A stretch of DNA of 59,034 nucleotides, filler included. It is 3 parts of 3 records of this genome, joined end to end, with 100 filler letters (N's around TTAATTAATTAA, not from the genome) between each part and the next. Parts side by side here need not be neighbours in the genome. Positions count along the whole stretch, not along the records: positions 19,283 to 50,339 come from SRR20825019_92; 2 more parts are not named here. One strand, given 5' to 3'. Below, piece after piece: positions 17,845-58,334 of the stretch. The notes under the pieces were generated by a model. The model was not told where the DNA came from, made no database searches, and was given only the letters and a program-made list of their open reading frames with translations. A program made the translations under genes and the position numbers. Within the stretch, counting starts at the first letter, position 1. Every line of letters starts with the position of its first letter.

Positions 17845-17845
17845 T

Positions 17846-18788: not shown

Positions 18789-18819
18789 GAGTCAAATTTG
18801 ATTGGGAGAAATACCGGTT

Positions 18820-34500: not shown

Positions 34501-37500
34501 TGCTTCAAAGCAAGCTGCACACTCGCCACCACAAATGGAAATTCTTCGATAATTTTGGTAGCAAGTGCGGAATTGCCGTTGTGGATAGCTAACAAAAGAC
34601 TTGCTCTCACGTCAGAATGAATATCATACTCCGATTCCATTTTCTCTTTTGTGCTCCTAGAGGACAGGTTAGCACTTTGAAATGGATTCATGATTGATTG
34701 ATTGATTGATTGAGCAACAGACCTGTTGTTAATACATTCCACAACTGCAGAAAACATGCTCGGAGGCGCCCCACTCATAGCCAGCGCCTGTTATTTTGAA
34801 CTCTTTCAGATCCAACTACACCAACACATGGAAATCTTAATACCTGCATCGGTGACACACCCTTCTTATTCGATATAACTACTGTAACCGCGCATTCCGG
34901 TAGAGCAAGAACTCTCTCTGCAATATCCCAATGACGACCCAATATCGCAGCCACTGCAAAAAGTGAGTTCGTAAAATTCAAAGCAAAAAAGCAAACCTAC
35001 TCAGAATGGTGTTCCCGGCTAGATCCCATACATCTTCATATCTGACTCCAAGCACCTTATCAATGATAAATTCGACAAGAGAAGCGTGCCCTCGCCCCGC
35101 TGCAAGAACAATGCTAGGAGAACGCTGGGGACCATTGGGTGTGTAAAAGTAGTGATCTATCCACGGCTCCCCCTTGAGGACGGGGTTAGGACTAGATTTT
35201 CGAGCCCTAAGTTCGCTTACCATTTCGCTTCCAGACTCTTCCTCAATAGCACCATTGCTCTCATCGTCTTCAAAATCAGATACGTTTCGACTAGTAAGCT
35301 GGCTAGCTTCGCCTTCGATGCCCTTGCCTAGTGCATCCCTCGTACTGGTATCCTCAATCTTGGATAATGCCTGCAAGATCTCGCTCTTGACAGTGTCGGC
35401 GACAGAAGGTCTCCTCTCAGATACCGCCTGGGATAATGGTCCGCTAATTGAAGCTCGCCGGGATCCAACTGCGCTCCCTTGTGGAGACTGCGAGCTCACG
35501 GTATTAGATATTGCCACCAGAAAGACCAACAGATAACCTACAGCCTGAACGGAGATGGGACGAGAGGATGTAGCAGTCATCTTGAAAAGAGGTGATTCGG
35601 ATACCTCATCCAGAACTTCAGAACATATGACTGCGATGTCGTCATAGCCATTCAGGCAGCAGTAACCAATAGGGGTGAACATATCCGCATCGGGAGATAC
35701 CAGCATGGCCTTCACGTTGCCGTGCTTATGAATCTAAAGCTAAAGTGAATATCGCCGGCGTCCTGCAAGAACATGAAACTAACCTTTTTCAGAAGAAACT
35801 TCAGGATCAATACTCGCTCTTTCTTATTGCCAGTACCCTTGCACAACATGTGAAAAATATTCTGGCCTTCATGGTTGGATCTTTTCAAGCTGGCGTCCCT
35901 ATCCAGCAGCTCCCTTACTGCCGCATTATTGCCAGCATATAGTGCTAGTAGAAGTGCTGAGTTTCCGAAGCGGTCAACAGATTCGACGGATCTAAAGTTT
36001 TTCATCACTGATGTGAGGAGGTGGGAAGCATATGCCAAAGATGTGGAGAGCACACAATTGTGCAAAACTGTTCGGCGATAGTAGTTCCGCTTTTTGATGT
36101 GAGGCATATTGTCTGTCTAAATTCAGAAATATGTACCAAGACTAAGCACTGCCAACTCACCAAGAAGGACCTCAATGCAATCTTTCTTTGTCGCTTCGCT
36201 GCCGGCGAAGGCGTAATTCAGAGGGACATCTCCGAGCCCATCCTCAAGGAGAGGATTCGCGCCAGCTACTAGTAAAGATTTTACGCCATCCTTATTTCCA
36301 AGCCATGAGCACAAGTGAAGAGGCCGTGGCTTGAGCTGAAACAAGCGCCGCATGGCTTCAAGTTGGCGATACTGATCGTGCGACATCATATCGGCGAGCT
36401 GTACCCTGGTGGCATTGGTTAGAAGGCGGCACCACTGCGGCGGTGGAACGCACCTGTCGACATATTCAATCCCGTCAATATCATTTTCAAAGTCTTCGAA
36501 CGCATCCTCATCGCCGTGCCTGATCGGCTTGTTCTGCCCCAAGACAAACTCAGGGACGCTATTCGATCTGGTAATACGATTTTTCCCGGAGTCCGAATCG
36601 GTTTCATCAATAGCACTTCCCTTGCTCGCAATCCTATTCAAGTCGTCCTCGCTCTCATTCAGTTCTGCATCGATCAACTTTTGTTTTCGGCGGTTGCGTT
36701 CCATCGCCTCTCGTTCTTCTTCTTCGCGCTTCGCCCGTTCCCTACAAAGTACGCCAATAAGACCCCATGTGGAATGATCCGAAGGTCCATCCCATACTTT
36801 TCCTCAGTTGCCTGCCTGATGCTTTCTTCTTCAACAAACTCTTTGTCGATTCCTTCTTCTTGTGCCTCCCCATCGGCTGAATCCTCCTTGCTAATTTCCG
36901 GCTGTGGTGCTGAGGAAAACGCCCCTCTTAGGAAGCGAATGGTATTGTATGCAGAGTTCAGCTTCCCGCGATATCCCTAGGAGATGACAAGTTTGAGAAT
37001 TGTCCCGCGAGCGTGCTATGCGTTTACCTGCGCGTTGGAATCCCGACCCTTAGACAGCCGCTTCAAAATGCGAATTCCCGTCTCTTCCTTCCTATTGTTG
37101 TTATCTTCATCACAGTAATCTTCGATGTCCACTCCAACCTGGAACAAACGGTTGGAAAAATATCAAAGACTTCTCGTGGATGGTACCGACCTGATGATTG
37201 AAGTCGGCGGTAGTGCAATGCTGCAGGAAAATCATCATCAGCTCCGCAACCTCGTATTCGCTCGTGACAACCCCTTGGTATAGCTTGTTGTACACGAGGC
37301 AAGCATAATGGATCGGAGCAAGACCATCATTATTCAACAGCCGAAGGTTTACGCCTCGGTTTAGGAGCATTTCCACAAGGGCAGCATTGCAAGTCTTCAT
37401 TGCTAGAGCAGCACCTTAGCGATCTCTAGAAACAAAAGTGACAACGGTACTATTACCACAATGGAGGGGAGTATTTCCATCATCACTTCTGGCATCAAAG

Positions 37501-39672: not shown

Positions 39673-41992
39673 ATGCAGCCTTATCCAGAGGCAAGAAACC
39701 AACAAGACGATATGACTAGGCGGCGGCTGTCGAGCATGGAGGGAGGGCGTACCCCTACTACACCTCACCTCAACACCCCAAATACTTTAGGAAACCCATT
39801 ATTGGATTCCTCCGAATATAGTGACGGTGCTCCCGCTCCTCGCAAGAAGGTTATGTCACGGTCCGGGTGTCATCCTGTTGTCACGACTTCTTGTGTGTTG
39901 ATGGCACTTGTTGTGGGTTGCGTAGTTGGTATGTTTGCGTTGATAGTGAGTTTTGTTGGTGGCCTTCTAACATTCCGTCTTGTTAGGTGCTGCTGCCTAT
40001 GGTGGTTACTCATTTTTATACCCCGCATCTCCCTCGCTGCACTCTGGCGGGGGTGACTCCGACGACGGAATATTGGCTCCAGAGCTCATCCCGAGACTTG
40101 TGGAGGTTGGAATCAATAGCATCACCCTTGACTTTGATAGGTATCCTCGTGCTCTTCAATACACTGCTGAGTGCACAGAACTCGAGTCCAAGAAGACTTT
40201 CACTATGGATTCGTCCACCTCCAAGGTCACAGTTACCGGCCTGGAAGCAAGCACGCTTTACGAATGCGTATACCGTGTCACTGTACCGGAGGGAGTGTCG
40301 CCGGACTCACCCTCGGTGAGGTACCCTACCCTAGCAGCCACCGTGCCTGGAAAGAGCGCTGGCGTGTGGGCTGTGGAGCCAACCACGGCTGATTTGATTA
40401 CACTCGACTGGGACGAGACCGAGAATGGTGGCTCCGATATCACTGAGTATGAGCTGCTCTACAGTGAGAGCAAGGCAGACAATACCGTGAAAGACTGCTA
40501 TAAGACTGGTCCTGGTTGCTCGGTCTGTGATGCTCCATATGAAGAGGTTTGTGTATGATAGTGTGGTGTTGTACGACGATGCCTTACGCGTATTTTAGGA
40601 ATCCTCTGAAACCTTCTTTACTTTAGGAGGTCATTGCAAAGACGTTCCGTTTACAGGATGCCCAAATTTCAACCTCAAGTTGGTGTGCTATGACTTCCAG
40701 GTGTGTTGCTTACTTGTGATAAGTGATATAAGCTAACGAATTCACTGCCTTAATAGTGTTGCCGAGATGTTCCTCAGGCAAACGAAGGCCAAGTTTTTGA
40801 GTCTCTTTACAAGGGCAAGGACAGTCATTTTACCCACAAGGGACTTCCAGCTGGCCACAAGTATGCATACAAAGTGTTGGCAAGAAATGAGGTCGGCGAT
40901 GGTTTACCCAGTCTTGCCACTCCCGCGTTTACATCTACCCCCGATGCCAAGGTCCCTGACCGTGCTGATGCCCCACGTATCAAGGACTCTACTCCCATCA
41001 GCTTGCGGTTGGCCTGGGATATACCCGAGCACAATGGTGCCATGATTGTAAAGGCCAAGCTACTCATGCATGATGGAGACAAGACGTCTGTAGCCTGCCA
41101 AGATGAACGCCACCTCACGAAGAGTTGTACAGTTGAAAATCTGAAGCCGGCAACCAAGTACACCTTCAGTGTGCAGGTGAAGAATGAGAAGGGATGGTCA
41201 CCTGAAGGAACCAAGGCTGAGTTGGAGACACCAGAGGCTGGTGCCCCGCCCACATGCAGTCCTGTTGAGTACGCTAACTCAGGGCCCGACTGGATCGATG
41301 TTAAACTCAAGGCCGCTCCTCACTACGATAAGACGATAGAACAGAAGTACGAGCTCGAGTATAAGCAAAACCGTGCAACTGAGTATACCAAGGTGAACGG
41401 TGCCATTGACATTGAGGATGAAGGAGAACTTGTCTATCGTGTTGGTTCGTTGGTTCACAACAAACATTACAACTTCCGAGTTCGTGCTGTGAACTCCAAA
41501 GGTTCAGGTTCGTGGAGTGAAGTTATTGAAGACTGCTGTGACACCCAGTTGTCTGGCAAATGTAATGCTAAGGACCGCAAGATAATGACGCACAGTGAGA
41601 AGGCTGAATACGAATATAGTGGTATGTATGATCGACATGATGCGAGGTACACACATTCATTTATATGTGCAGACATCGCCCATGATTGCGGCAAGTCGAA
41701 TCTTGGCCGCTCTGAAGCAACTGCGGCCTGTATCCGCAGCCAAGTATCAGGCTTCAGTGCAGGCTGTGCATCGTGCTTCGGCGAGGTATTATCCTTCATG
41801 AGAATGTATGATACGAGTACTCACTGGTTTGTGTAGGTGGCCTCGTGTGGCAAAAGCAAGTGTTGGAGCAAGTGCTTCCCTAATGATATGTCACAGGGCT
41901 GCCGCCAGTGCTACCAAGACAATTGCCGGCCATCGCTTGCGGAATGTGCCGGCATAGCCATGGAGGATCTCCCTCGCGAGCGCCCATTGTAG
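39673..41992 (+). CDS. Spliced single-pass membrane protein with four fibronectin type III domains and Cys-rich modules (683 aa)
   Basis: Exons 39673-39928, 39987-40546, 40599-40700, 40757-41621, 41673-41785, 41837-41992 total 2052 nt with consistent phases; introns are 58, 52, 56, 51 and 51 nt GT-AG. FN3 motifs GLEASTLYE, GLPAGHKYAYKVLARNEVG, NLKPATKYTFSVQVKN, YNFRVRAVNSKG. Confidence 0.88.
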
Positions 41993-42105
41993 GATGGATA
42001 CAAATGTACAATTAAAGGATTGCAATGCAGAGAAAGAGTGTTTACTGGGTGCTAATCATCAATAATGATTTTTCGAAACAGCCTGGTAGAATTGCCAAGC
42101 CTACT

Positions 42106-45100
42106 TCATGACAGTACCACATCCTCTACGGTGATCGATCCCTTCCTCTCTTTCAATTCCTGGAAAAACGCGAGATTCTCCTTAGTATTACTCAAAAGTG
42201 TATTTGCCGCGTCAGGATTGCGACTGTGAAGGAGACTACACAGGACTTCGACCTGCGGCAACCCAATGAAAGACATAAATCCGACTTGGCATTCCGCAAC
42301 AGCAGGTTTTTCACGATCCATGAAGGGGCTAACTGGCATGCCATAAGCCTTTTCGACATCACCCTGGGTCCAGAATTCCCTGATGACACGGAGGACCCAG
42401 CGAAGATAAATCTTCAGAGGACGGGCAGGATTCGAAACGTCGGCAACCTTGATGATAATTTTCATAAGAAGCACTCGGTCAATATCCACGGCACTAATAC
42501 CTCTGCTCTGCGCTTCCTTAACCGCATTCAGGACGGAGTTGTGCTTGGATAAGTCCGTACTCAAGACTACCTGGGTAATCAAATCCTTCATGCGCGCTTG
42601 ATCCTTCTCAGAGAGGTGAGTGAGGAAAGCGCAATGCTCGTCTTGCATGACGTGAAAGGCCTCACAAAGATGATAACATTCCAAGACGCTATCCGGTTCT
42701 CCCCTCTCTTCCGCCAAGTGCAGTAGCTCTGAATTAGTTGCTTTCAGGAATACATTTGTTACAGCAGGATGGCGGAAGTCATGAATGGTCGCCGCTATGA
42801 TCAACGCTAGTTGTTCCAATGGAGTGAAAATCTGCTCCAACTTAAAGGCCGCCATGATGAAATGAACGGCTTGTACAACATCAGCCCCATGTGTGGAGTT
42901 ATGGTAGAAATTCCTCGCAATATATCCATCATTGATCACCACAAGGAAGTTTTGAAGTCTCTCCAGAGGAAGCGCCAGCGTTTCAACAAGGTCCCGAGTG
43001 TTAATGGTGTACCAAGACGCAAAGTAGAGAGGGGCGCCTCGAGATTTCTTGGCTAACTCGAATACATCGAATTCCCACGTTCCAGCATTGTGATACAGAT
43101 ATGGGTTACACTCTGAAGCGTGAGTATTGTAATTAGACCGGACTCGCACATTCGCTCGACAATATTTTGCAGTCTGTTGCATAGATAGCTTAATTTTGCA
43201 GTCCTCGATATACCATGATATAGCCTTATCATTCGGATTACTGGCCTTCAACTTTTCCAAGAGACAGAAAGCATCACCTCGAATCTGTTGAACAGTAAAC
43301 ATCACTGCTTTCTCAAACTCATGCTGATATTCGATCTTCGAAGAGTGATTGATAATAATCTCATAAATGTCAACTGGAATCGTTTTCCCCTTCACTGTAA
43401 CAAGACCAATATGCCTGTGTCGCAAGGCCTGAAGGACTGTCGAATCGATTCGGTTCAATGTGTCGCCTGTGATTAAGATTTCTGCGCCAAACACTTTGGA
43501 CTGACCCTCTAGCCTGGAGGCAGTATTCACCACATCCGATATCACCGTTGAGTCCATTCGTAGAGTCTCGCCAATTGTTCCAAGCACAACTGGCCCTGAA
43601 TTAATGCCAATGCCAACAAGGATGGGGGGCTCGTTCATTTGAGCACGTTGACGATTGAAAGCGGACAATTCGTCAATAATGGCACAAGCAGCCTTCACAG
43701 CATCTGTGGCGTGAGTAGCACTGCTCGGAAATAATGCCATGATACAATCTCCAATATATTTGTCAATGAAGCCTGAGTGCCGTCTGATGATCGGACCAAG
43801 CCGAGACATAACATCGTTCAGAAGATCAAAAACACTGCGCGAGTCGGCCAGCTGCTCCGAAATAGATGTGAAATCCCGAATGTCCAGATAGAAGACAGTC
43901 ATTTCAAGCTCATTCATATCGCCCAGACAAACATCGATAGCGTTCGAGCTTCCCAATAGTCTACAGAACTCGGACGGTACGAAGCGTACGTACGATTCGT
44001 TGACGCTGATCAGCTCTTTGTTCCTCTCTTCCAAAGCCTTCGAGTGTTCTCTCAACTCTGAGTACAGGCGAGCATTGTTCAATACTACAGTCATCTGCGA
44101 AGACAACATGTCCAGCATATGAACGTGGGTTTTTGTGAAAGCATTCTTAAGCACAACATTCTCAACATAAATGATGCCGTGAAGTCTTTTCTGCATAGTC
44201 AGTGGAATGCAAGCTACACTCCCGTCACGGGTACGACTAGATAAACCGGCCCCATAAACAGGCTCCGTTTTCTTCAATACCATTTCAACAACTTTCATGT
44301 CAATGTCACGAAACTCCTGCAAAGACACATCAGGTTTGAACATTTCTCCTCTGCCATTTGTGCATATGTTCACAAACAGTTTAGATGGAGCTGCAAGCAC
44401 ATCACGGCGAGTCGCAGTCTGGACTCCTTCCACTCCCATAGTGTTTGTGTTTGCGAGAGCGAATACTACTGTCTGCGCACCAGAAAACTTGGAAACAACA
44501 TCAACAAGGCTAACCAGCAACTTATCGAAGTCAATTTCCGATGAAATAAGTTTGCTGGCTTGGGCCACAGCTTGGCTGTCGAAAGAGGCGGCTTTTCCTC
44601 CTTTTGTAGTGTCAACAGTTCCTGTAGCAACTGTGGTGTCTCCTTCTGTATAACCCTCCGGTGATGAAGTCGAACTCCCGCTGCCCGCCGACTTCATAAT
44701 GTGCGACGCGTTCTCACCAGCAAGGACGGATACAACAGCCATTGAACCCCACATACACCCATACTCTACGAAGGTATGGACAACTGCCGACGCAATAGAT
44801 TCCAGGCTTGATTTGTTCAAGGCCTCGAACAACAATCCAGACGCAAGCACCACGATGCTTGGTTGTGAATTGACGCGAGCATTACTTATCGCTGAATCTA
44901 GAATCGGAATAGCATTGTGCCAAGAATTCTTCAAAATCAGCAGGTGTGCCTGCACGACTAGCAACCGACTACGATATAGTCGCGGTTGGTGCGCAGCGAA
45001 TACCTTGAGCTTCTCCATCAAATGCTCGATTTTCTTGTTATGCCTGTCAATCTCATCTAGAACACCATCATTTTGTTCTTGTAAATTGAGAAATCTAATT

Positions 45101-48100
45101 CTCTCTATGAGAATTAATGGCGCTATGCAGACATATTCGATATAGGGTATCAGACCAGTAGAAAGGTACAGAGACGATTCAGGAATCTTCGTGAGGATCT
45201 GGTATGCTTCTTCATACTGCTGGAGTAGGGTATAAGCCAACGCATAGTATATGTGTGATATAGAAACAAAAAAGAATGGATGGTCAGGTGATATTTGCGC
45301 TTCTTCATCGGACAGCCAAGAGCTGACTTGCCCGCTTTCTAGCAGGGAGAGTGCCCCATACACTGCCGTGAGCGACCGATTATACAATGTCAACTTGCGC
45401 CGACGTGACAGCTCAATGTAACCTCGAAGCTTTGAGGCCACAATTGGAATCGGACTCCCTCCCTGTGTGAGACTCCAGCATTCCTGAATGGCTGCAAACA
45501 ATGCATAGGAGTGATCCGAGAGGGACATAGCTATCAACCTTCCCTCATTGAAGTAACTGCTAATATCCTTGGGATCCATAACCCATTGGCAGGTCATACC
45601 CACATGAACGTTAACCCGCGCCGTCGATATGCCCTTGGCATCTTGGGAATCACTCATTTGCAAAAGAGCGTGCTTAGCCAGCTCTCCCCCCAGTTTCAAT
45701 TCATTGTAGTACGCAGCCATAACAAATCCAAAGACCGCCAAGCCCTCTGCTGTTCTTGGATTCACACCATACACCATTGCTCTAGAGGTGATTGTGGTCG
45801 CTGCCCATGTGTAGAGACCACGGTTTCCTACAAAATAAGCTAATGAAATCAAATGCATCAATAGACCGCAGATAGTTTCCTCTTCCCAGGCAATATTGAG
45901 ACTCCATTTGCTAGTAAGGGTAGAGAAATCGGTGGTTTCACACAAGAGATTCTTGGTTCTAGACACAATCTTCTCAACGTCATCAGGGGAAGGACTTATA
46001 GTTGCAGGCATTCCAAAGACCTCGTTAAGGCAGTCGATAATGCAATCTATCGCTTGCCTTGGTGCGTTTTGATGAAGGAGTCGCCTTGTCTTCTCACCAT
46101 AAGCCCAAGCAATATCGCTGTACTTCGTGCAATGCACCATCACCATCGAAAAATAGTCCATGTAAAGTTCAGAATCATGGTGGTCAACCTCTACTTCCAA
46201 GAGTGCTTTCAGCACTAATAATTCAAGGTTCTCGCTATCCGAGGCAATATTGCAATTAGAAAAGAATGTCAGAGCGTGCTTTTCCATGTGGGACATCCAA
46301 TTCTTCCGCTCGCCGTTCGCTACAACTTCAAAAATCCGAGATTCGATCCCCTGAAGGTAATGGTTTCGATCCTTTCGGTTCAGCACTGCATCAACTACCG
46401 ACACTTGAAACAGAAAGAAGAAAGAACAATATGCATGCTGTCGAGCCCGGACATTGTCGCTAGACTTGAATTGACGGAAAAAGTGCATATTCAAACGAGT
46501 ATATACTTTCAATTCCCCAAGAATCAACTCCAGTTTTCCCTTAAAATCAATATCGTTGACTCCCAATTCCCGTGACTTTGCGTCGTGTACCAGTCGAACA
46601 AAATAGTCAAGACTGTCGTTCGCCAGCTCACATACAGTCCCACCATACTTCAAAAACATTTCCCCTTCGACAATATCTTCGTCAAATACGTTAGGTGCCT
46701 CAATAGGCGTCGCAGGGTCAAAATCCTTTTGGCAAATAGCAAAGAGGGTGCGCATAACAGAGACTCGAGTAACCCGTTGACCTCTAAAAGATACACTTCT
46801 TCTCTCGATTTCGTCACGGGCACTCTTCTTACTAAACTCTACAACCGTATCGTTGAACCTAGCACTGCTTGATAGAGACAGTATTCTGTTTTCGTTCATA
46901 CTCCCCACTAATTGGCTAACATCCTCATAACACATTCCCATCACCAGAGCGAGTATCCACACCGTAGAAGATCCACCGACCCAATGTAGCGCAATCAAAA
47001 ACTCTAGATCGCTATCACGTAAGTTTGTTAACTTCTGATTCATGTCTAACATTAAGTCATCATATCCTTTCCAAATGAAGGCACCCTTATCAAAAGAGAA
47101 GCGAATAACGCCACTGAAGAACAAGGCCCGAACGACTTTTTCCATTCCCAAGGGATTCCCAGTGCAGGTTTTGTGAACTCTCTCGGCTAGTTGGCGAACA
47201 AGCTGAATATTTTCATGAAAACATGTTGATATGTACTTCTCGATGTCCCCGATGTCAAGTGGATGCATCTTGATTTTCTTCAGAGATTGCCCCGATGCCA
47301 TCTCCACAACACGTTCAATATGGGGATTGACTTCACTACACTTAGATTGAATCGACAGGAACACAAGACAATTCACATTCTTCTCCATCAGATTCGATAA
47401 TTGAGCCGCAAGGAGATCGCTCATTTGGTGGGCATCATCAACAACAATTACCAATCTGCTGCCACGCAACCCGTTGGCCAAGTACTCTAGAAGTTTCTTC
47501 ATTTCGTCATCCAAATCACTTTCAAAGGAATGCATGTCGTCTAGAGCTGAGGTCTCTCGCATTTTTGAGTCCACAGGCTCGAGGCATCCTTCAAAGAAGA
47601 CATCACGATAGTCTGGAAATTCCCGCCACACCCTTGTTAGCCTCAACAGAGACAAGTCCTCGCGAAGCGTCATTAATTGCACCATTCCCAATTTCTTCAT
47701 GGACACAGCAATCGCATCAATCAACATTGAATGATGGGTTTTGGCTTCTTTCTCGCAACTGACAGAAACTACAAAATCTCTCGAAAAGCTTCGTTCACAA
47801 TACTTGTTGAGGACCACGGTCTTGCCACACCCTTCATCACCTTCCAAACACACAACACGGGCAGCCACAGCTGGTTGGCGAAGAAATTCATCGATTTCTG
47901 ATATAGTGTCATCTCTCCCTAGAAAAGTCTGTGTTGGTGCAAATTCTCCATTCACGCCTCCGTCCATCGCAATCTCGGATATCGGGCCCATGTTAAACAA
48001 ATCGTTTCTAAGAGAGACTTCTGATATATCTGAACCATTGGCTATTCCTTTCAAAAACTCTGGAAATAAGGATTGTGACACCTTCCCTGCAGGTCCCAAA

Positions 48101-49463
48101 AATGCGCGGAATAGTGCACACATAGACAAAAACCGGTCATCGGGATTCTTTGATATCATCTTGGCAATGATATTCCCTATCAATGGCGGCACAGCAGTAT
48201 TCAAGGTACAGACATTCGGCGGAACCGTTGCGAGGTGGCCGTATATCACGGACTCTTGGTTTGCAGAATCCTGGAAAGGAGTAGTACCTGTCAGCAGGAA
48301 AAAAAATGTAATGCCGAGGCTGTAAATATCAGATTTGATGGATATGGGGGTGTCCAGCCTCCCTGTACATTCAGGGGACATATAAAGCGGTGTTCCCACA
48401 TTTGTGGACCTCGACTGGGCGGATTCAGCGAGCAACGAAGCTATCCCAAAGTCTAGGATGGAAATAGACATTCGCCGAAGACCGGGCCTCAACTGCATTC
48501 CATCCCCATTGTCGAAATACTCCACGTTCACGGCCACATTGTCTGGTTTCATATCACGATGAAGAATATTGCATTCGTGAACATGACCCAACGAATGGAT
48601 AAGCTGACAGGCTACTACAATAAATTCTGCGACATCAAGGGGGCCAGTATTGCCAACCAATGTGGCCAGTGTCTCAGACCCTTCGTCAGAAACTACCATT
48701 GCGGCCTCAGTGCTACCCAACTCAACAAACCCAAGCCCTTTGGGGCACCTGACTACAGTAGACTCCAGTGTCGACAAAATGCTCCACTCGTGTTCAATGG
48801 CACTCTTAGGGCCGGCCTTGCACACAGCAGGGACACCTGTGTTCGCGTGCTTGCATCGATAGACAACCCCATGTGAATTCCGTTTCAGCTCGTAAACAAT
48901 AGTATATTCCAAAGTCTTCAGGGCGTATTGCAGATTCGTCATTCCCTGAGTGAATACCAAGGTTAAAACCAGAAACATACACAGAACACAAACACAACAA
49001 AATTTCGTACATCCATTTCGTAGTAAACAGCCGAGTTAGATTTGCTTTTCGAGCGAAATTTACGTGAGAAGATACTTCTATCTGAGAAGACGCTTTTCTC
49101 TTGGGTGTCCGACGAAGACTCCATTGAGACTATGGCGGTGGCTGGTGACCTGGGCTGAAAGTCAAAGAAATATGGTCAGCGTTGTCGCCCAGTTGTTAGC
49201 AGGCACAAGCCTACCAACGCATGCAAGGAAAACGGTGTTTCGAAAGTAACGCCGCGTGGTGTACCGCGAGGACTGTGTATTCCGGTTGTGTTTTCCGCTT
49301 CGCTATTGCTTGAATTCTTTCTATTTTTTTCATTGAGGGACAGCGCCCGGGAAGCCTTCTTTGGGCCTGGAAGGATCCGCCCGCTGGAACCTTGTGTCCC
49401 GACCCATGAGGTATGGCGCACAGACTTAGGAAGACTATATATACTATCGCCCTCGTTACTCAT
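42106..49463 (-). CDS. Ser/Thr kinase - STAND/AAA ATPase - GAF - class III adenylate cyclase - class I phosphodiesterase fusion (2410 aa, 3 exons)
   Basis: Exons 49463-49215, 49154-49011 and 48945-42106; introns 49214-49155 (60 nt) and 49010-48946 (65 nt), both phase 0. Motifs: HRDMKPDN/DFG/YMSPE; GDEGCGKT/VIVVDD/GNP; ISSEID..GIIYVEN..NARLY; DIRDFT/DKYIGD/VNTASRLE; YHNSTHGAD/HDFRHPAVTN/ADVSNP/QVGF. Confidence 0.92.
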
Positions 49464-49660
49464 GCTATGCGAGGGTCACTTTCGACAATACAACCAATTT
49501 CTGATATAAGTACACAAATATATGCACATCAAAACTGGCAGAACGATGACGTTTTCGTTGCAGGCTGCGCAAGAGAAGTTAACCCTGCAACGGGACCTAG
49601 CCAACAAACACAAGATGAAAGGCTCTAAAGCCGCCCAATTAGCGGAAACAACGTCAAAGT

Positions 49661-49682
49661 CTCTCTCTCTCTCTCTCTCTCT
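49661..49682. repeat. (CT)11 microsatellite
   Basis: Pure CT run ~200 bp upstream of the fusion gene start. Confidence 0.92.
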
Positions 49683-50339
49683 ATCCGTTCCCCCCACACC
49701 CACCCCTCTCAGTCTCTTGAGCTCGATGTGGCCCCAATACACTTCGCCATACATGGGCAGCCATGCTTCGAAAAGGAGATGGCTAACAAGAAGAACTGGG
49801 CAATATCCTCTCGACTGGCGCGGATACCGTTTGACCATTTGCCACAACTGCGTTCCCCTGCGTTGAGGCGACTGACGTTGGAGACTTGTCCTGGTTGAGC
49901 CCACAAGCCTCTCACTGATCGACTGAATTCGGCGGTCCCGGGCAGCCGGCCTGTGGGGGCTGTGAGGGCATGATGGTGTGTTCATGGTGCGGCCCGGCCG
50001 CACGCCGCACAGTCGAAATTCAGTGCCCAGCGGCAGGCCGAATGGGACCGAAGGCCCCCTGGCTCGGACTGAGCCGCGAAGCAGCAACGCATCGGAGATA
50101 ACAACCCCACTGACCCCATCCGAAATCGTCAAAACCCGAGGAGGCACAGGGGACGGTAGTAGACCACAGAGCCAATGAGACAATTCAAGGGTTTTTATAA
50201 TATGTCTATATTTAGAATAATGTAGGAAATACCACATCTTCAAAATATAGTTCTGGATTGATCTCGGGATGAAGTCAGTATTTGTATACCAATGTTAACA
50301 CAAATGATATGTTGTTCATGTAATTGTGCACATGATACC

Positions 50340-50439
50340 NNNNNNNNNNNNNNNNNNNNNNNNNNNNNNNNNNNNNNNNNNNNTTAATTAATTAANNNNN
50401 NNNNNNNNNNNNNNNNNNNNNNNNNNNNNNNNNNNNNNN
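50340..50439. other. Artificial contig-joining spacer
   Basis: 44 N + TTAATTAATTAA (50384-50395) + 44 N. Confidence 0.98.
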
Positions 50440-50440
50440 G

Positions 50441-50617
50441 GATCTGGCGGATGCGCTGGGCCTGTCGCTTGTTCACACCAACAAAACTCTGAGCAAATTG
50501 CGCACGCGTCAGCTGGCGAACTGGAGCGACGACGCGTTGATCGTCAATGATCTGGGCGCCCTGGCTAAGGCCGCTTGCATGACGCTGGAACCTTTGATGA
50601 AACGTCCGATCATGTAA
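50441..50617 (+). CDS. Crp/Fnr family regulator, C-terminal HTH fragment (5'-truncated)
   Basis: Translates DLADALGLSLVHTNKTLSKLR...KRPIM*; absent from the ORF track. Confidence 0.85.
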   Translation, partial: DLADALGLSLVHTNKTLSKLRTRQLANWSDDALIVNDLGALAKAACMTLEPLMKRPIM

Positions 50618-50646
50618 GCGGATCGTCAAAGATCGAACAGGTCCGG

Positions 50647-50679
50647 GACCCTCTGCACGCCCCTGCAGAGGGTCTTTTT
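50647..50679 (+). terminator. Intrinsic terminator
   Basis: 11-bp stem GACCCTCTGCA/TGCAGAGGGTC, 6-nt loop, then TTTTT; lies between convergent genes. Confidence 0.85.
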
Positions 50680-50680
50680 G

Positions 50681-51559
50681 TTATCGTGGCTCCGCCGCCA
50701 GTACATCATCCTTGACCTGACCCCAGGCGATCAGCGCAAAGACCACCGTGCCACCAACGATATTGCCCGCCAGCACCGGAATGAAAAAGCCGAACAAAGC
50801 CTCGGTCGGGCCAAGCAACCCTTGCACCGCAAGATAAGCCATTTCGACCGACCCTGCGACGATGTGGGTAAAGTCACCCGCCGCGATCAGCCATGTGAAT
50901 GTCAGGATGATGAAAAACCCGGATTCGTCCGCCTGCGGCAGCATCCACACGATGGCCGCGACCAGAATGCCCGCCGGAATCGCGCGGAAAAAGCTTTCGT
51001 CCGCGGGCATATGGATTGCATGTTCAGACAAGGACAGCAGCGCAGGCGCAAGGTTTTCAGGGATCGCGGGCGTATAGGCGTAAAGCGTCGCAATACAGAA
51101 CGCCCCCAGCACGTTGGCCCCCAGCACAATCACCCACAGCCGCGCCACGCAGGCGAAATTATGGGCCGTTGGTTTGACCATCAGCGGCAGCACCGTGGTG
51201 ATGGTGTTTTCGGTGAACAGTTGCATCCGGCCCATGATGACCAGCAAAAAGCCCAGCGAATAGCCGAAGTTCTCGATCAGGAACGACCATGGCGCATCGG
51301 GCAGATAGGTTCGCAGGATCGCCTCGCCCAGCACCGAAAAGCTGATCATGATGCCAGCGGCCGTACCGGACCAGAACAGCGACCGCTTGGTGCGCGCCAG
51401 CTCTTCCTCGCCATCGCGGCGGATCACTTCGTAAATCAGCTTTGACGACAGTTTGGCCGCGGCTTCGACCGACTCGCGTTCGGTTTCTTCGTCAAGGGGC
51501 ACCGCACCGGGATCGTTCTCGTGAATAGATACCATTTTATGTTCGTCCCAGTTGGTCAT
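50681..51559 (-). CDS. Formate/nitrite transporter family protein (YfdC-like)
   Basis: GEEELAR, QLFTENT, HIVAGS, GNIVGG; multiple TM helices. Confidence 0.9.
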   Translation of the reverse strand: MTNWDEHKMVSIHENDPGAVPLDEETERESVEAAAKLSSKLIYEVIRRDGEEELARTKRSLFWSGTAAGIMISFSVLGEAILRTYLPDAPWSFLIENFGYSLGFLLVIMGRMQLFTENTITTVLPLMVKPTAHNFACVARLWVIVLGANVLGAFCIATLYAYTPAIPENLAPALLSLSEHAIHMPADESFFRAIPAGILVAAIVWMLPQADESGFFIILTFTWLIAAGDFTHIVAGSVEMAYLAVQGLLGPTEALFGFFIPVLAGNIVGGTVVFALIAWGQVKDDVLAAEPR

Positions 51560-51662
51560 CGGACTTTAACACGCGGACCTCTTGTTTGGTTCCCGTTTAT
51601 CTGGTGCCATTGCCGCGTAGGTGTTCTGCCCCACATTGCAGCCTGACACTTTGGAGAGATAC

Positions 51663-52889
51663 ATGTTCGGATCGCGCGCCTATGTACTGAAAATCGCACA
51701 AGACGTGCGATCCAGCTATTGGTTTATTCCCTCCACCCTGGTGGTCGCGGCCCTTTTGCTGTCTGAACTGACCCAGTGGATCGACCACAACCCCGATATG
51801 CTGCCTGTCGCGCTGCCGGATGATTTTCTGAACACACAGGTGGACGGCGCGCGGCAAACGCTGGCGGTGATTGCGCAATCGATCATCGGGGTGACGGGTG
51901 TGATGTTCTCGATCACCATGGTGGCGGTGTCCTTTGCCTCTGGCAACTTCGGGCCGCGGCTGATCGGGAACTTTATGCGCGACCGGGGCAACCAGACAAG
52001 TCTGGGCCTGCTGATTTCGTCCTTTGTCTACACGCTGATGATCCTGCGCGCGGTGCAAAGTTCCGGTGCGGACGGGCTGGAATCCTTCGTGCCGCAATAT
52101 TCGATGGTCGCGGCGATCCTGCTGACGTTGATGTCGGTGGGCACGTTGATCTATTTCCTGCACCATATTCCGGAAACCATCAATGTATCGAACATTTCGG
52201 CCGCGTTGGGGCGCAGATTGGCGCGGGGAATCGAACGGATCATCGACAACCACGCCGAACGGACACCTGAACCCGAAGTGCAGCCTGCAAAGAATGCGAC
52301 CGAGACCGAGCTGAGCCTTGGGCGTGCGGGCTATATCCAGCAGCTGGATCTGACAGGTCTGTTTGAACTTGCCGAAGAAAACGACTGGGTGGTCCATGTC
52401 GCCGTCGAGATCGGCAGCTTTGTCAGCATGTACGAAACGGTCCTGACCGTCTATTCGGCCAGCGCACCCACGGCAGACCAATGCGACAGCCTGTGTTCCA
52501 GCTTTGCCGTCGGTGAAGAGCAGACCGAGGCGCAGGACATCACATTCATGATCGACCAGCTGGTCGAGATGTTGGCGCGGGCCTTGTCGCCGGGGGTGAA
52601 TGATCCGTTTACCGCATTGAATTGCCTGAACTGGCTGCGCAACGGCATCAGCGTCGCCTTGCAATACAAAGGTGGGCTTGCCCCGGTGCCGCGGGCGCGC
52701 GTGCAATACCGCAGCCTGACCCTGCAGCATTTGCTGAACATCAGTTTTCGTGCCGCCGCACCCTATTGCATGCCCGACAAGATGGCGCGCGACCATTGGA
52801 TGTTCTCCGTGCGCAGCCTGATGGACGCGGCCACGGGCGAACATAAAAAGACCGTGGCCAAGCTGCTTGAGGAATTTGAAAAAGCCTGA
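51663..52889 (+). CDS. DUF2254 family membrane protein
   Basis: SSYWFIP, FSITMVA..ASGNFGPRL, ARALSPGVNDPFTA. ATG at 51663 follows GGAG. Confidence 0.88.
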   Translation: MFGSRAYVLKIAQDVRSSYWFIPSTLVVAALLLSELTQWIDHNPDMLPVALPDDFLNTQVDGARQTLAVIAQSIIGVTGVMFSITMVAVSFASGNFGPRLIGNFMRDRGNQTSLGLLISSFVYTLMILRAVQSSGADGLESFVPQYSMVAAILLTLMSVGTLIYFLHHIPETINVSNISAALGRRLARGIERIIDNHAERTPEPEVQPAKNATETELSLGRAGYIQQLDLTGLFELAEENDWVVHVAVEIGSFVSMYETVLTVYSASAPTADQCDSLCSSFAVGEEQTEAQDITFMIDQLVEMLARALSPGVNDPFTALNCLNWLRNGISVALQYKGGLAPVPRARVQYRSLTLQHLLNISFRAAAPYCMPDKMARDHWMFSVRSLMDAATGEHKKTVAKLLEEFEKA

Positions 52890-52958
52890 GCGCAGCCATT
52901 TGCCAAACCGGATCACTTGTCGCACAACTGCGGCACTGCTGATTGAAAGGTTCCCGTC

Positions 52959-53654
52959 ATGCGTTTCGTCTTTCCACCCGCTCCCCAGGCCGCTCTGGCC
53001 GTTGCAGGCAGCACCGACCATTTCCCGGTGCGGCGTGTCTTTTGCGTCGGGCGCAACTATGCCGCCCACGCCCGCGAGTTCGGCAATGACCCTGACCGCG
53101 ACCCGCCGTTCTTTTTCACCAAGCCGGCGGACGCGGTGGTGAACACGCCCTGCACCGTGCCCTATCCGCCGCTGACCGAGGACCTGCATTTCGAGATCGA
53201 GCTGGTCATTGCCATCGGCAAGGGGGGCGCAGACATCGCGGCTGGGGATGTACCCGATCATATCTGGGGCGCTTCGGTCGGAATCGACCTGACCCGCCGT
53301 GATTTGCAGAACGAAGCCAAGAAGATGAGCCGCCCGTGGGACTGGAGCAAGGCCTTTGACCACTCGGCGCCGATCGCCCCCATCGTGCCGATGGCCGATG
53401 TGCCCAGCCTGACGCAGGGGCGCATCTGGCTGGCCGTGAACGGCGAGATCAAGCAAGACGCCGACATCGCCGATCTGATCTGGCCGGTGGCCGATCACAT
53501 CGCAACGCTGAGCCAGGCGATGACACTGGCCCCCGGTGACATCATCATGACGGGCACGCCTGCGGGCGTGGGGGTGGTGACGCCCGGTGACGTGATGACG
53601 GGCGGTGTCGATGGCATTGCTGAACTTGAGGTGACAGTGGGGCCGCGGGCATGA
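52959..53654 (+). CDS. Fumarylacetoacetate hydrolase family protein (fumarylpyruvate hydrolase-like)
   Basis: RRVFCVGRNYAAH, PFFFTKP, HFEIEL, DLTRRDLQ, TGTPAGVG. Confidence 0.92.
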   Translation: MRFVFPPAPQAALAVAGSTDHFPVRRVFCVGRNYAAHAREFGNDPDRDPPFFFTKPADAVVNTPCTVPYPPLTEDLHFEIELVIAIGKGGADIAAGDVPDHIWGASVGIDLTRRDLQNEAKKMSRPWDWSKAFDHSAPIAPIVPMADVPSLTQGRIWLAVNGEIKQDADIADLIWPVADHIATLSQAMTLAPGDIIMTGTPAGVGVVTPGDVMTGGVDGIAELEVTVGPRA

Positions 53655-54295
53655 CGCTTGTCCTGCACAACTATTTCCGCTCGTCCACGTCGACACGTGT
53701 GCGGGCGGCACTGAACCTCAAGGGGCTGGCCTATGACTATGTGTCCTATGCGCTGCTCAAGGACGAACAGCGCGGGGCGGCGCATCTGGCGCTGAACCCG
53801 CAAGGGCTGGTGCCGACCTTGGTGACGGATGAAGGTGCGCTGCCGCAGTCGCTGGCGATCATCGAATGGCTGGACGAGGTACACCCCGAGCCGCCCTTGC
53901 TGCCCGCCGACGCATGGGGTCGTGCGCGGGTGCGCAGTCTGGCGCATATCATCGCGCTGGATGTGCATCCGGTGAATAACCTGCGCATTCTCAAACACCT
54001 TGAAACCGAATATGGCGTCGATGCCGACGGCAAGGCCGCGTGGTTCCGCAAATGGGCACAGGCGGGGATGCAGAGCCTTGAGGCGCGCCTGTCCTCAGAG
54101 GCTGAAACCGGCACCTTTTGCCACGGGGATATCCCCGGTCTGGCCGATCTGTGCCTGTTCGCGCAGGTGTTGAACAACGGACGGTTCGGCGTGGGGCTGG
54201 ATGCCTATCCGACCATTGCGCGCATTCACGCGGCCTGTATGGCATTGCCTGCGTTTGAACGCGCAGCCCCCGCCAACCAGCCCGACGCGACCTGA
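53651..54295 (+). CDS. maiA: Maleylacetoacetate/maleylpyruvate isomerase (GST zeta)
   Basis: YFRSSTSTRVR, NPQGLVP, QSLAIIEWL, HPVNNLRIL, PANQPDA; ATGA overlap with the hydrolase. Confidence 0.93.
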   Translation: MTLVLHNYFRSSTSTRVRAALNLKGLAYDYVSYALLKDEQRGAAHLALNPQGLVPTLVTDEGALPQSLAIIEWLDEVHPEPPLLPADAWGRARVRSLAHIIALDVHPVNNLRILKHLETEYGVDADGKAAWFRKWAQAGMQSLEARLSSEAETGTFCHGDIPGLADLCLFAQVLNNGRFGVGLDAYPTIARIHAACMALPAFERAAPANQPDAT

Positions 54296-54381
54296 TGCGA
54301 CACCGTGGCACGCGGCCTTCGTCTGGCTGCGTGCTACTCTGGATCTGGACAATGCTGAAGCCAGTTGATCGGAGTGACCCC

Positions 54382-54855
54382 ATGAAATCCATGTTCCGCG
54401 TTCTTGCCATCTTCGCCCTCGCCACACCTGCCTTTGCCGACAGTCACGCGGCGGGGGATGCCGACGCCGGGGCCAAGACCTTTGGCAGATGCAAAAGCTG
54501 CCACATGATCGCCAATGGCGACCAAGTGATCGAAAAGGGCGGGCGCACCGGGCCGAACCTCTATGGGGTGATCGGGCGTCAGGCGGGCACCGCCGAAGGA
54601 TACAGCTATCAAAAGTCGATCGTTGCCGCGGGCGAGGCTGGCCTGGTCTGGGACGAGGAATCGCTGACCAAATATGTCGCCGATCCGCGTGAATTCCTGC
54701 GCGAATTTCTGGACGATTCCAAGGCCAAGTCGGGCATGTCCTTCAAGCTGAAAAAAGGCGGCGCTGATGTGGCTGCCTATCTGGCGCGCGTCGGTCCCGA
54801 GGTTGCACCGGCAGAAGCAGATGCCGCAGCAGCGCCTGCCGACAGCGACAGCTAA
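54382..54855 (+). CDS. Periplasmic class I cytochrome c (c2/c550-like)
   Basis: Signal peptide ending PAFA, CKSCH heme motif, TGPNLYGV, KSGMSFKL (axial Met). ATG at 54382 follows GGAG. Confidence 0.93.
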   Translation: MKSMFRVLAIFALATPAFADSHAAGDADAGAKTFGRCKSCHMIANGDQVIEKGGRTGPNLYGVIGRQAGTAEGYSYQKSIVAAGEAGLVWDEESLTKYVADPREFLREFLDDSKAKSGMSFKLKKGGADVAAYLARVGPEVAPAEADAAAAPADSDS

Positions 54856-54859
54856 GAAT

Positions 54860-56224
54860 TTAACGCGCGGTGCGGGCCTGTGCCTGCGCCGCAAGTTCCG
54901 GCAGGCCGTTGCGGGTATAGACCTCGGCCAGCATCCGGTTCAGCGGCACGCCATCGGGATCATAGGTACGCCGCATTTCCAGCACTTGCTGTGCCCGCGC
55001 CACGTCTCCGTTTTCCATCAACGCATCCAGATGGATCTGGTCAAACAGATCGCGCTGGGCATGGCTGCCGCCACATTCGGCCAGACGGGGCAGGGCGATG
55101 CCCAGCAGCCGTGCGGCTTCGGCCCAGTCGCGGTTGGCATGTGCCACGATCCCCTGGGCTGCGGGCAGGGCCACTTCGGCCCATGCGCGATAATCGTGCT
55201 GCGTGCTGTCGGCGGCGCGGTCCGTGATCGCCTGCATCAGCACATCCATCGCTGCACGATCATCGGTGCGCCCCAGCCCATACAGGTATTGCAGCGTCAG
55301 GAACGGGCTGACCGTATCGGCCCCGCGCTGCGCCACATGGGCCACCACATCGGCCCAGCGGTCGCCCACGTCGATCCCAGCGAAGTCCAGCCGCGCCAGC
55401 AGCGACACAGCCCCGACCTGATCCTGACTGTAATCCTTGGCCAGCCCCCAGACGTGTTCATCATAGGCTTGCAGTACATCCTCGTGCCGCCCTTGGCTGA
55501 TGTAGAACAGCGCCAGATGCCACCAGTTGTGGCTGCGCATAAAGCTGTTCAGATCCTGCCACGTGTCCGCGACGCTTTCCAGAAAGACGATGCCACCGGT
55601 CACGTCGCCGCGCGTCAGATAGATATGTGCCAGCGCGTGATGCGCCCACGGATCGTCGTGCCGCAGCCGCATTGAGCGCCGCGCGGCGGCTTCGGCCTCT
55701 TTCAGCAGGTGACATTCCTCGTAGCCGAATGCCAGCATACCATGGGCATAGGCGATGTCCTCGGCCCCCGGAAAGGCGCGGGTGGCGATGCGCAGCATGG
55801 CCGGGAAATCACCAATGTTGAACGTGTGGTATTGGCCCAGCTTCAGCATCACCATGTCACGCGGGTAACGGCGGATGGTTTCTTCGCACAGGGCAATCAG
55901 CTCGGGGATCTTGCCGTCGTGAAACAGCCGGGCGGCGTGAACGGTCGCCTGTTCGCGGGGTGTGGCATTGGGCGCGGCCGCTTCGGCAGCCTGCAGAAAA
56001 GGTGCGGCCAGTTGCGGGGCAATGGGTGCCTCCAGCAGCATGTAGAGGATCGCGGCATAGGCGTTGATCAACGCACAGTCGGGTGCTGCCTCGGCGGCCT
56101 TCAGCACATTGGCCGCCTTGGTCTGAAAGCTGATGAAACCGTGCACAAAATCGTCGATGCCTTGCAGGGCGGCATCATCGGCACCGGTGACGGGCAGGCC
56201 ATACAGGTCGGTCATCTCAGGCAT
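54860..56224 (-). CDS. TPR protein, TTC38-like
   Basis: GMLAFGYEE, DPWAHHALAH, HNWWHLAL, GGSHAQRDLF. Start may be at 56215. Confidence 0.88.
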   Translation of the reverse strand: MPEMTDLYGLPVTGADDAALQGIDDFVHGFISFQTKAANVLKAAEAAPDCALINAYAAILYMLLEAPIAPQLAAPFLQAAEAAAPNATPREQATVHAARLFHDGKIPELIALCEETIRRYPRDMVMLKLGQYHTFNIGDFPAMLRIATRAFPGAEDIAYAHGMLAFGYEECHLLKEAEAAARRSMRLRHDDPWAHHALAHIYLTRGDVTGGIVFLESVADTWQDLNSFMRSHNWWHLALFYISQGRHEDVLQAYDEHVWGLAKDYSQDQVGAVSLLARLDFAGIDVGDRWADVVAHVAQRGADTVSPFLTLQYLYGLGRTDDRAAMDVLMQAITDRAADSTQHDYRAWAEVALPAAQGIVAHANRDWAEAARLLGIALPRLAECGGSHAQRDLFDQIHLDALMENGDVARAQQVLEMRRTYDPDGVPLNRMLAEVYTRNGLPELAAQAQARTAR

Positions 56225-57221: not shown

Positions 57222-57222
57222 G

Positions 57223-57573
57223 TCAGATCCGTGGTTTCGGGGCGGCTGTGGCAGGATCGCCGGTGTTCGGCACGCCCTTGGGTTCGATCAGCAGCACCTT
57301 GCATTCGGCTGCGGCGCGGGGCCGGTGGGTGACGCCGCGCGGGACGATAAACAATTCCCCCGCGCTGACCTGATGCTGGGCATCTTCCAGATCCATCACC
57401 ATTTCGCCTTCGAGCACCAGAAAGAAATCATCGGTGTCTTCGTGCAGGTGAAATGGGAATTCGCCCTGAAACTTGACCACCATCACGTCGTTGTCGTTGT
57501 ATTCAGCGACCACATGCGGGTCCCAATGGGTGCTGAACTGCGCCAGCTTGGCGGCAAGGTTGACCGTCTTCAT
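57223..57573 (-). CDS. Cupin domain protein
   Basis: GEFPFHLHEDTDDFF, GELFIVPRGVTHRP, LLIEP. ATG at 57573 overlaps the SDR stop (ATGA). Confidence 0.9.
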   Translation of the reverse strand: MKTVNLAAKLAQFSTHWDPHVVAEYNDNDVMVVKFQGEFPFHLHEDTDDFFLVLEGEMVMDLEDAQHQVSAGELFIVPRGVTHRPRAAAECKVLLIEPKGVPNTGDPATAAPKPRI

Positions 57574-58310: not shown

Positions 58311-58334
58311 GTCATTCCTCCCTGTGAATACGCC

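Follow-up and report, generated by a model that had tools for sequence, protein, structure and literature searches.

A candidate inter-domain chimeric gene joining a bacterial-type kinase-STAND-GAF-adenylate cyclase protein to a PDE4-like phosphodiesterase on a eukaryotic contig

The gene and its host contig

The stretch of DNA analysed here (the window, 59,034 nucleotides or 59 kb) carries on its minus strand, at 42106-48978, a single open reading frame (ORF) of 2290 aa. In order from the N-terminus, it encodes a Ser/Thr kinase, an AAA_16/STAND ATPase, about 700 aa of TPR-like helices, a GAF domain, a class IIIb adenylate cyclase, a tail consisting of one TPR, a linker of about 30 aa and a PDE4-like class I phosphodiesterase (PDE). 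The reading that we favour, and hold to be fairly likely, is that this is a nuclear gene of a eukaryote in which a bacterial-type kinase-STAND-GAF-cyclase protein (residues 12-1934) is fused to a PDE4-like domain, the product being a soluble protein of about 2300-2410 aa. The stop-to-stop frame runs to 2309 codons and the second longest frame on the same contig to 373, so the long frame is far beyond chance. An initial annotation of the locus had quoted a series of peptide strings from this region, and all of them lie within this one ORF. For the cyclase and its lead-in they are NESYVRFVPSEFCRLLG (residues 1660-1676, window 43951-44001), AIDVCLGD (1680-1687), ELEMTV (1690-1695) and RMDSTVISDVVN (1807-1818, window 43525-43560); for the tail, FEKAV (1888-1892) and NPNDKAISWYIEDC (1914-1927, window 43198-43239); and for the PDE, WEFDVFEL (1968-1975, window 43054-43077).

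The features of the gene are collected in Table 1. Joining the predicted exons A, B and C gives an ORF of 2410 aa with a single terminal stop, and the first 11 codons of the ORF as called mechanically (MFLVLTLVFTQ) fall inside predicted intron 2. The initial annotation bounded the gene at 43080 and 48945. The upper bound is where a predicted 3' splice site opens exon C; the interval takes in the bacterial-type part only, and the PDE domain lies outside it. On the basis of hydrophobicity, no segment typical of a membrane helix was found in the protein.

Table 1. Predicted exons, introns and domains of the cyclase-PDE gene, with positions counted along the window and residues along the 2290-aa ORF.
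Feature	Position	Strand	Basis or remark
Predicted exon A	49215..49463	-	ATG at 49463; Ser-rich low-complexity N-terminus; in frame with B and C after splicing
Predicted intron 1, 60 nt	49155..49214	-	GTAGGC...CTAAC...TTTCAG
Predicted exon B	49011..49154	-	In-frame small exon between two predicted introns
Predicted intron 2, 65 nt	48946..49010	-	GTACGA...pyrimidine tract...CACTCAG
Exon C, 6840 nt uninterrupted	42106..48945	-	All domains and the stop codon
Hanks-type Ser/Thr kinase, residues 35-285	48124..48876	-	Pfam Pkinase 1.3e-27
AAA_16/STAND NTPase core, residues 352-532	47383..47925	-	Pfam AAA_16 2.2e-10; Walker A GDEGCGKT at 380
All-helical TPR-like solenoid, about residues 640-1460	44599..47061	-	AlphaFold2 model; collinear with bacterial P0002 at 23% identity
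GAF, about residues 1484-1634	44077..44529	-	Alignment with cyanobacterial GAF-cyclases; AlphaFold2 model
Class IIIb adenylate cyclase catalytic domain, residues 1692-1865	43384..43905	-	Pfam Guanylate_cyc 9.7e-17; long signalling helix ahead
One-TPR helical tail, residues 1885-1934	43177..43326	-	C-terminus in bacterial relatives
Seam linker, about residues 1935-1960	43099..43176	-	Common to neither set of relatives
PDE4-like class I PDE catalytic domain, residues 1961-2290	42109..43098	-	Pfam PDEase_I 2025-2252, 4.7e-65

Four stretches of 44 N occur in the window. They are paired, and each pair encloses the twelve bases TTAATTAATTAA. The N44-TTAATTAATTAA-N44 arrangement, found at 19183-19282 and 50340-50439, is a six-frame-stop linker, and the window is therefore three contigs placed end to end. 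The contigs are unrelated, and any reading of the sequence that spans either linker is meaningless. The gene is on the middle one, contig B (19283-50339, 31 kb), which has a GC content of 44-55% per 2-kb bin, mostly 46-50%. Contig B is eukaryotic, as its canonical short GT..AG introns demonstrate, and the outer contigs A and C are bacterial. The short, frame-shifting ankyrin-repeat ORFs of contig B illustrate this: in one gene (21331-22806, minus strand), three phase-consistent GT..AG introns lie at 22258-22209 (50 nt), 22051-21945 (107 nt) and 21794-21739 (56 nt), and once they are removed the ankyrin repeats are continuous in a single open frame. A neighbour of the cyclase-PDE gene, on the plus strand at 39971-41836, encodes several fibronectin type III (fn3) domains and a Cys-rich C-terminus; its 210-nt intron (40547-40756) includes a CTAAC branch site. 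In the annotated stretches of contig B there is about one intron per 0.65 kb; at this density an intron-free backbone of 5.8 kb (the kinase-to-tail part of the gene) is unexpected, whereas an intron-free PDE segment of 1 kb is not. The host is probably a marine protist whose DNA was assembled together with that of Methylophaga-like and Pseudosulfitobacter-like bacteria.

Given that the window mixes contigs from at least three organisms, and that the large exon looks bacterial in being intron-free, the gene might be thought to belong to a co-assembled bacterium, or the contig to be a chimeric join of bacterial and eukaryotic DNA. We consider such an artefact very improbable. The gene lies inside the 31-kb contig, with the spliced fn3 gene convergent to it and ending only 270 bp from its stop; its own 5' end has in-frame GT..AG predicted introns; and the ORF itself holds a eukaryote-type PDE. 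Its codon use is uncorrelated with that of either bacterial contig (relative synonymous codon usage, RSCU, r = 0.03 and -0.30), and from 40001 to 50000, a stretch that takes in the gene and flanking sequence, GC varies little (0.44-0.50 per 2-kb bin). The GC content at third codon positions (GC3) is 0.479 in the backbone, 0.531 in the PDE and 0.551 in neighbouring exons, and there is no sign of recent arrival in the composition.

The remainder of the window is described briefly here. The analysed ankyrin gene, the one spliced in silico, is part of an ankyrin-repeat gene array at 21300-36100 (minus strand) with canonical introns of 50-107 nt. Contig A (1-19182) holds densely packed gammaproteobacterial housekeeping genes, and clustering at 90% identity groups its SpoT with Methylophaga sp. 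OBS1; its rph gene is truncated at 19182, and it includes two GAF-GGDEF diguanylate cyclase genes (6074-7138 and 16816-17844) that are unrelated to the cyclase-PDE gene. Contig C (50440-59034) has a GC content of 53-64%, and its SDR gene clusters with the alphaproteobacterium Pseudosulfitobacter pseudonitzschiae; between 51597 and 57332 (GC 60-64%) it has several long ORFs on both strands without a Pfam match, some of which may be mutual shadow frames. Scans of the window for tRNA genes, Rfam families and long repeats found none. Three other accounts of the window were set aside: a single bacterial genome with a low-GC island or effector was dropped, the N runs being six-frame-stop linkers and the three contigs matching different organisms; a bacterial host for the cyclase-PDE gene was ruled out by the introns; and a giant-virus origin of contig B was considered unlikely given the dense canonical introns.

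The bacterial-type part and where it ends

The cyclase profile (PF00211) matches with 61.6 bits against a cut-off of 21.9. The query has the invariant residue in all of the columns D235, D280, K276, T347, N354 and R358 (alignment A3), and was also aligned residue by residue with Pseudomonas aeruginosa CyaB; we take the two Asp to be metal-binding, the Lys and Thr to select ATP in class IIIb, and the Asn and Arg to act on the transition state. Judged by these residues, the domain is a class IIIb adenylate cyclase with its catalytic residues intact. Its best sequence match in the PDB is this CyaB (1.1e-28), eukaryotic cyclases following at 8e-13 or weaker. The GAF domain ahead of it is matched by Pfam GAF families only at E 0.002-0.008, under their cut-offs, but it is nonetheless supported by 34% identity over 486 columns with a cyanobacterial GAF-cyclase, protein P0325 of Okeania sp. 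SIO2C9, in which GAF, signalling helix, lead-in motif, catalytic residues and tail are all collinear with the query.

The initial annotation regarded the cyclase, with its lead-in, core and tail, as being of bacterial type, and the database searches agree well with this. A search with the GAF-cyclase-tail unit gave 4967 matches at E<=1e-10. Among the best 120 of these, 29 have an organism name, these being 14 cyanobacteria, 5 spirochaetes (2 of them Leptospiraceae), 9 other bacteria and one archaeal metagenome-assembled genome (MAG), that is, 28 bacteria and one archaeon; no eukaryote is named among the 120, and none of them comes from a eukaryotic source. Coverage in this set reaches 98-99% at 32-35% identity, and an Atlas search agrees with the bacterial affiliation. 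The AlphaFold2 model of residues 1465-1935 (mean pLDDT 84.7) has a GAF domain, one long helix, the cyclase (pLDDT about 90) and a three-helix tail (94-97). According to Foldseek it resembles structures in which a sensor is joined by a helix to a cyclase, with a template modelling (TM) score of 0.83 and a root mean square deviation of 2.3 to CyaB, and its core is as in the CyaB structure (PDB 3r5g).

The tail on its own has no Pfam match; however, the tails aligned with it in P0312 correspond to Pfam TPR_2/TPR_6. This protein (JGI metagenome, 735 aa) consists of a receiver domain followed by two tandem units, each with a class IIIb cyclase and one TPR, which shows that the cyclase plus tail moves as a module.

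Like the cyclase and the PDE, the kinase and AAA_16 domains score above their Pfam cut-offs. The N-terminal kinase retains HRD at 140, DFG at 176 and SPE at 201, as well as (by eye) the Lys in AVCK; its Gly-rich loop is degenerate, with one Gly left. In a PDB search its best 16 matches are bacterial kinases of the PknB/PknE/StkP type (top 7.9e-18), the first eukaryotic kinase appearing at 2.6e-15, and NCBIfam gave kinase-domain matches below threshold and nothing else. The segment that follows has the features of a STAND protein, namely a Walker A motif, the string LVIVVDD (identified by eye), and an NTPase core followed by a winged helix and a repeat sensor arm. No solved structure in the PDB was matched by the sequence of residues 301-1464, and the TPR-like solenoid has no Pfam or PDB sequence match. 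The AlphaFold2 model of residues 301-1464, built on 21 bacterial relatives (mean pLDDT 69.9), contains an alpha/beta NTPase core, winged-helix elements and about 35 paired helices; over roughly residues 920-1420 the blocks mostly have a pLDDT of 81-95, with three 10-residue blocks lower. The best Foldseek matches to this model are Avs3, the STAND-TPR protein 6mfv, Cdc6/Orc1, Apaf-1 and CED-4, with E values down to 1e-7 but low whole-chain TM scores.

A search with the whole-length protein gave 106 matches, of which the best has 24% identity over 31% of the query. The matches are Pkinase-AAA_16-GAF proteins with HisKA (histidine kinase), GGDEF, sigma54 or cyclase outputs. Those with an organism name are 13 bacteria, together with one flatworm protein that matches the PDE only, and no row of this search comes from eukprot or mmetsp. 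The backbone is collinear with the bacterial protein P0002 over residues 26-740 and again from 917 onward. The nearest Atlas cluster (score 0.96; 72 members, 1713 aa) combines Pkinase, AAA_16 and GAF, and its name includes a cyclase.

The end of the bacterial-type part is sharply placed. Of the best 120 cyclase relatives, 113 align to an end at residues 1919-1945, most often at 1927-1928, and in 111 of these 113 there are at most 25 residues left after the alignment, which bears out the suggestion of the initial annotation that in bacterial cyclases this tail is the C-terminus. The remaining 7 end at 1874-1879, and none aligns past 1945. As an example, the Okeania protein (492 aa) aligns from its own residue 55 to its last residue, equivalent to residue 1932 of the query. 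In other words, the bacterial GAF-cyclases stop no more than 25 residues past the tail, whereas the protein described here goes on into the PDE, and has 1460 residues of kinase and STAND ahead of the GAF. The PDE relatives (the best 150 of 12832) start at a median of residue 1967, with 138 of the 150 starting at residue 1960 or later, and have a median of 345 residues of their own ahead of the domain. The tail and the PDE were said to be about 40 residues apart, and exactly 40 residues separate NPNDKAISWYIEDC from WEFDVFEL; about 30 residues between tail and PDE are common to neither set of relatives. More than 100 relatives come to a stop here, which fixes the end of the bacterial-type part to some 30 residues. 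A composite alignment of cyclase and PDE relatives (A2) had mis-aligned tails, and was not used.

The phosphodiesterase domain

The PDE profile (PF00233) matches with 220.1 bits against a cut-off of 24.8, and the domain matches human PDE4D at 2.3e-60 over about 300 residues, in agreement with the PDE4-like assignment of the initial annotation. All the invariant columns of alignment A1 that make up the metal site and the glutamine switch are present (H70, H74, H110, D111, H114, E144, H147, D186, H190, D224, Q275 and F278). The PDE4-type Asn, Tyr and Gln are also present, by eye on the PDE4D alignment; in such enzymes the Asn and Tyr orient the glutamine for cyclic AMP (cAMP). The full catalytic domain matches the PDE4/RegA-like PDEs, a type that occurs in protists and animals. 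However, neither UCR1/UCR2 nor a receiver domain stands ahead of it, the cyclase being there instead, and its identity to any known PDE is at most 41%. Because UCR1/UCR2 are lacking, and the cyclase tail is what lies upstream (residues 1866-2024 have no Pfam family), it is described as a PDE4-like catalytic domain and not as PDE4 proper.

A search with the PDE domain gave 12832 matches at E<=0.001, the best 150 having 29-41% identity. Twenty of these 150 were looked up, of which 11 carry the name of an organism or source, and all 11 are eukaryotic. They come mostly from Amoebozoa and other heterotrophic protists: Clastostelium (two), Ceratiomyxa, Mastigamoeba, Diphylleia (two), Ancyromonas, Rhodelphis, Eutreptiella, a bird PDE4D and an MMETSP transcript. 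A second PDE search gave 23 matches, with 13 labelled as eukaryotic (7 of them Mastigamoeba) and none as bacterial; 11 of the 23 come from eukprot or mmetsp. Class I PDEs do occur in bacterial MAGs, at 22 loci (Opitutia, Chlamydiales, Lambdaproteobacteria and two rumen MAGs), with 25-35% identity to the query against 36-41% for the closest named eukaryotic PDEs.

These bacterial loci are of several kinds. Those numbered L005-L022 are class I PDEs in Opitutia/Verrucomicrobia MAGs and in one Porticoccaceae MAG, and seven loci of the Opitutia type (one of them from the Porticoccaceae MAG) encode stand-alone proteins of about 414-462 aa that form a tight clade on a long stem. L001, from a Chlamydiales MAG, is a PAS-PAS-PDE protein. 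L002 and L004, from rumen Prevotellaceae and Clostridia MAGs, are PDE ORFs of about 710-720 aa on long branches, with an unusual amino-acid composition; they group with each other and near a euglenid sequence, and may be protist contigs binned with bacteria.

In a FastTree analysis of 194 PDE domains the query falls in a 30-member clade (Shimodaira-Hasegawa support 94) with Clastostelium, Ceratiomyxa, Mastigamoeba and Mesostigma. IQ-TREE (LG+C20 PMSF) was then applied to 57 hand-chosen rows, comprising the 30-member clade, 18 others and 10 bacterial loci, with 137 rows left out. Here the seven Opitutia-type PDEs form a clade at 100% support. The initial annotation named maximum-likelihood trees of the separate domains as a test, in which a PDE nested among eukaryotes would count as support; the tree run for the PDE gives it an amoebozoan sister, but neither the support for this sister nor the test against the Opitutia clade (both given below) is decisive. 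In sum, the PDE tree leans eukaryotic without settling the placement, and is poorly resolved; it is mainly the ranking by similarity that speaks for a eukaryotic PDE.

Origin, possible function and known relatives

A number of observations weigh against the favoured reading, and are gathered here. In the IQ-TREE analysis the sister of the query is the amoebozoan Clastostelium/Ceratiomyxa group, with a support of only 73/70; the query branch is long (1.92), no starred clade includes the query, and in the approximately unbiased (AU) test a grouping of the query with the seven Opitutia PDEs costs 6.57 log-likelihood units and is not rejected (p = 0.40). Like the rest of exon C, the PDE segment lacks introns, so that it need not derive from a spliced host gene, and the two 5' introns are predictions. 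There is no clear seam in GC3 or codon use, and the likeness to neighbouring genes is modest (RSCU r 0.45 for the backbone and 0.39 for the PDE). Outside the cyclase the identity of the backbone to bacterial proteins is only 23-25%, and most database matches are without an organism name. Finally, the kinase-AAA_16-GAF architecture is not confined to bacteria, since fungal proteins share it: in Chk1p of C. albicans and in Mak2 and Mak3 of S. pombe, S_TKc is followed by AAA_16, a long spacer and GAF, ahead of the outputs (PMC9069115).

This last point, taken together with a GC3 and codon use that are not foreign-looking, could be explained if the backbone were an old eukaryotic family like these fungal proteins, in which a cyclase and a PDE had replaced the original output, without any recent bacterial transfer. 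This seems quite unlikely to us, because GAF, cyclase and tail are collinear from end to end with cyanobacterial GAF-cyclases at 34-39% identity, because none of the 226 best backbone and cyclase matches is from eukprot or mmetsp (compared with 11 of 23 PDE matches), and because the backbone has no intron in 5.8 kb on a contig as intron-rich as this one.

The observations on the PDE could alternatively mean that all five modules were assembled in a bacterium, which had either captured a eukaryotic PDE or used a bacterial class I PDE, and that the eukaryote then received the complete gene in one transfer. The 6.84-kb exon is intron-free throughout, the PDE segment as well; class I PDEs exist at the 22 bacterial MAG loci; and the AU test retains the Opitutia grouping. 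Nevertheless we regard this as unlikely, given the lower identity of the bacterial PDEs compared with those of protists, and given that the free maximum-likelihood tree puts the query among eukaryotic sequences. Furthermore, the fusion itself was not seen in bacteria. The initial annotation counted its occurrence there as a refutation, and in our searches it did not turn up: none of the 16 bacterial PDE ORFs scanned (from the 22 MAG loci) has a kinase, AAA, GAF or cyclase domain, PF00233 is found in none of the 120 best cyclase relatives and in none of 105 backbone matches, none of the best 150 PDE relatives matches residues 1-1950, and a scan of genome contigs with the whole protein gave no match, while a second scan, with a PDE alignment, gave the 22 MAG loci. 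An exact look-up of the protein in a collection of 15 billion sequences also found it absent, which says little, since 7 of the 10 sequences queried were absent, including 3 of 4 from contig A.

We therefore return to a bacterial-type gene fused to a eukaryote-type PDE within a eukaryote. The proposal of the initial annotation, that a whole bacterial gene was acquired and extended with a eukaryotic PDE, is partly supported: it is upheld as regards the eukaryotic contig, the bacterial-type parts and the seam, while the order, acquired first and extended later, is something we infer. The reading as an inter-domain chimeric gene is largely borne out; the direction and order of events, the PDE ancestry beyond similarity rank, and all that concerns function go further than the observations. 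In the most likely history, a bacterial kinase-STAND-GAF-cyclase gene would have been transferred into the eukaryote; its stop codon would then have given way to a PDE coding segment of host type, and it would have acquired a short 5' end, also of host type, that contains two small introns.

As to function, a STAND/TPR assembly driven by nucleotide and ligand, together with a relay through the GAF and its helix, may pair two cyclase domains and so produce cAMP. The PDE, tethered in cis, would hydrolyse this cAMP, to give a local, self-limiting pulse or a set-point. The kinase, with its HRD, DFG and Lys intact and its Gly loop degenerate, could be an extra output or an autoregulator. A more specific idea is that the protein is an NLR-like STAND receptor of the protist, in which a ligand such as a microbial or viral cue sets off a cAMP burst from its own cyclase, the PDE ends the burst and the kinase relays it, the whole having come from bacterial STAND conflict systems and been completed by a eukaryotic PDE; we offer this as a speculation with a small chance of being right.

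If the favoured reading is true, the gene is an unusually clean natural inter-domain chimera, with its bacterial-type end placed to within some 30 residues, although this concerns a single gene on a single contig. The protein would also offer a compact system for studying the gating of opposing activities in one polypeptide, and a possible source of parts for synthetic control of cAMP.

Among known systems, the bacterial Pkinase-AAA_16-(TPR)-GAF-output sensors share the domain order of the query and are homologous to it, collinearly, over its first 1460 residues; the NCBI name of one of them, P0018, begins 'trifunctional serine/threonine-protein kinase...'. Their usual output is HisKA/HATPase, a PDE is absent from all of them, and no eukaryotic example is known, whereas the contig of the present gene has spliceosomal introns. 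One such sensor, P0003, does have a cyclase output, but its cyclase is of another subtype, with an HNOBA-like lead-in. The fungal class X hybrid histidine kinases, which resemble the protein in the domain order described in PMC9069115, end in HisKA-HATPase-REC, compared with cyclase-PDE here.

Cyclases and PDEs have been found in one polypeptide before. CAPE (COMBINED AC with PDE, where AC is adenylate cyclase), from Marchantia and other streptophytes with motile sperm, joins a class III AC and a class I PDE that act on cAMP (PMC5159850, PMC8115329). In CAPE the PDE is N-terminal and the AC C-terminal, the reverse of the order described here, and the abstracts, on whose description the comparison is based, make no mention of kinase, STAND or GAF. 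The diatom Seminavis robusta has a pheromone-induced bifunctional guanylyl cyclase/PDE (GC/PDE; PMC4726125), which likewise carries cyclase and PDE in one protein. As described there, two transmembrane helices are predicted in it, and cGMP is the nucleotide on which it is argued to act, whereas the present protein has no such helix and has the Lys/Thr (ATP) residues. For Physarum, the domain architectures of cyclases and PDEs are referred to supplementary figures (PMC4758236). No kinase-STAND-GAF-cyclase-PDE protein is described in the abstracts and article passages that the literature searches covered. Fusions of cyclase and PDE are thus already known, and the kinase-STAND-GAF-cyclase-PDE order is a variant of them, in which the pair is placed under a STAND/GAF sensor and beside a kinase. 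If the favoured reading is true, this would be a third independent way to join a cAMP cyclase and a class I PDE in one chain, after CAPE and the diatom GC/PDE.

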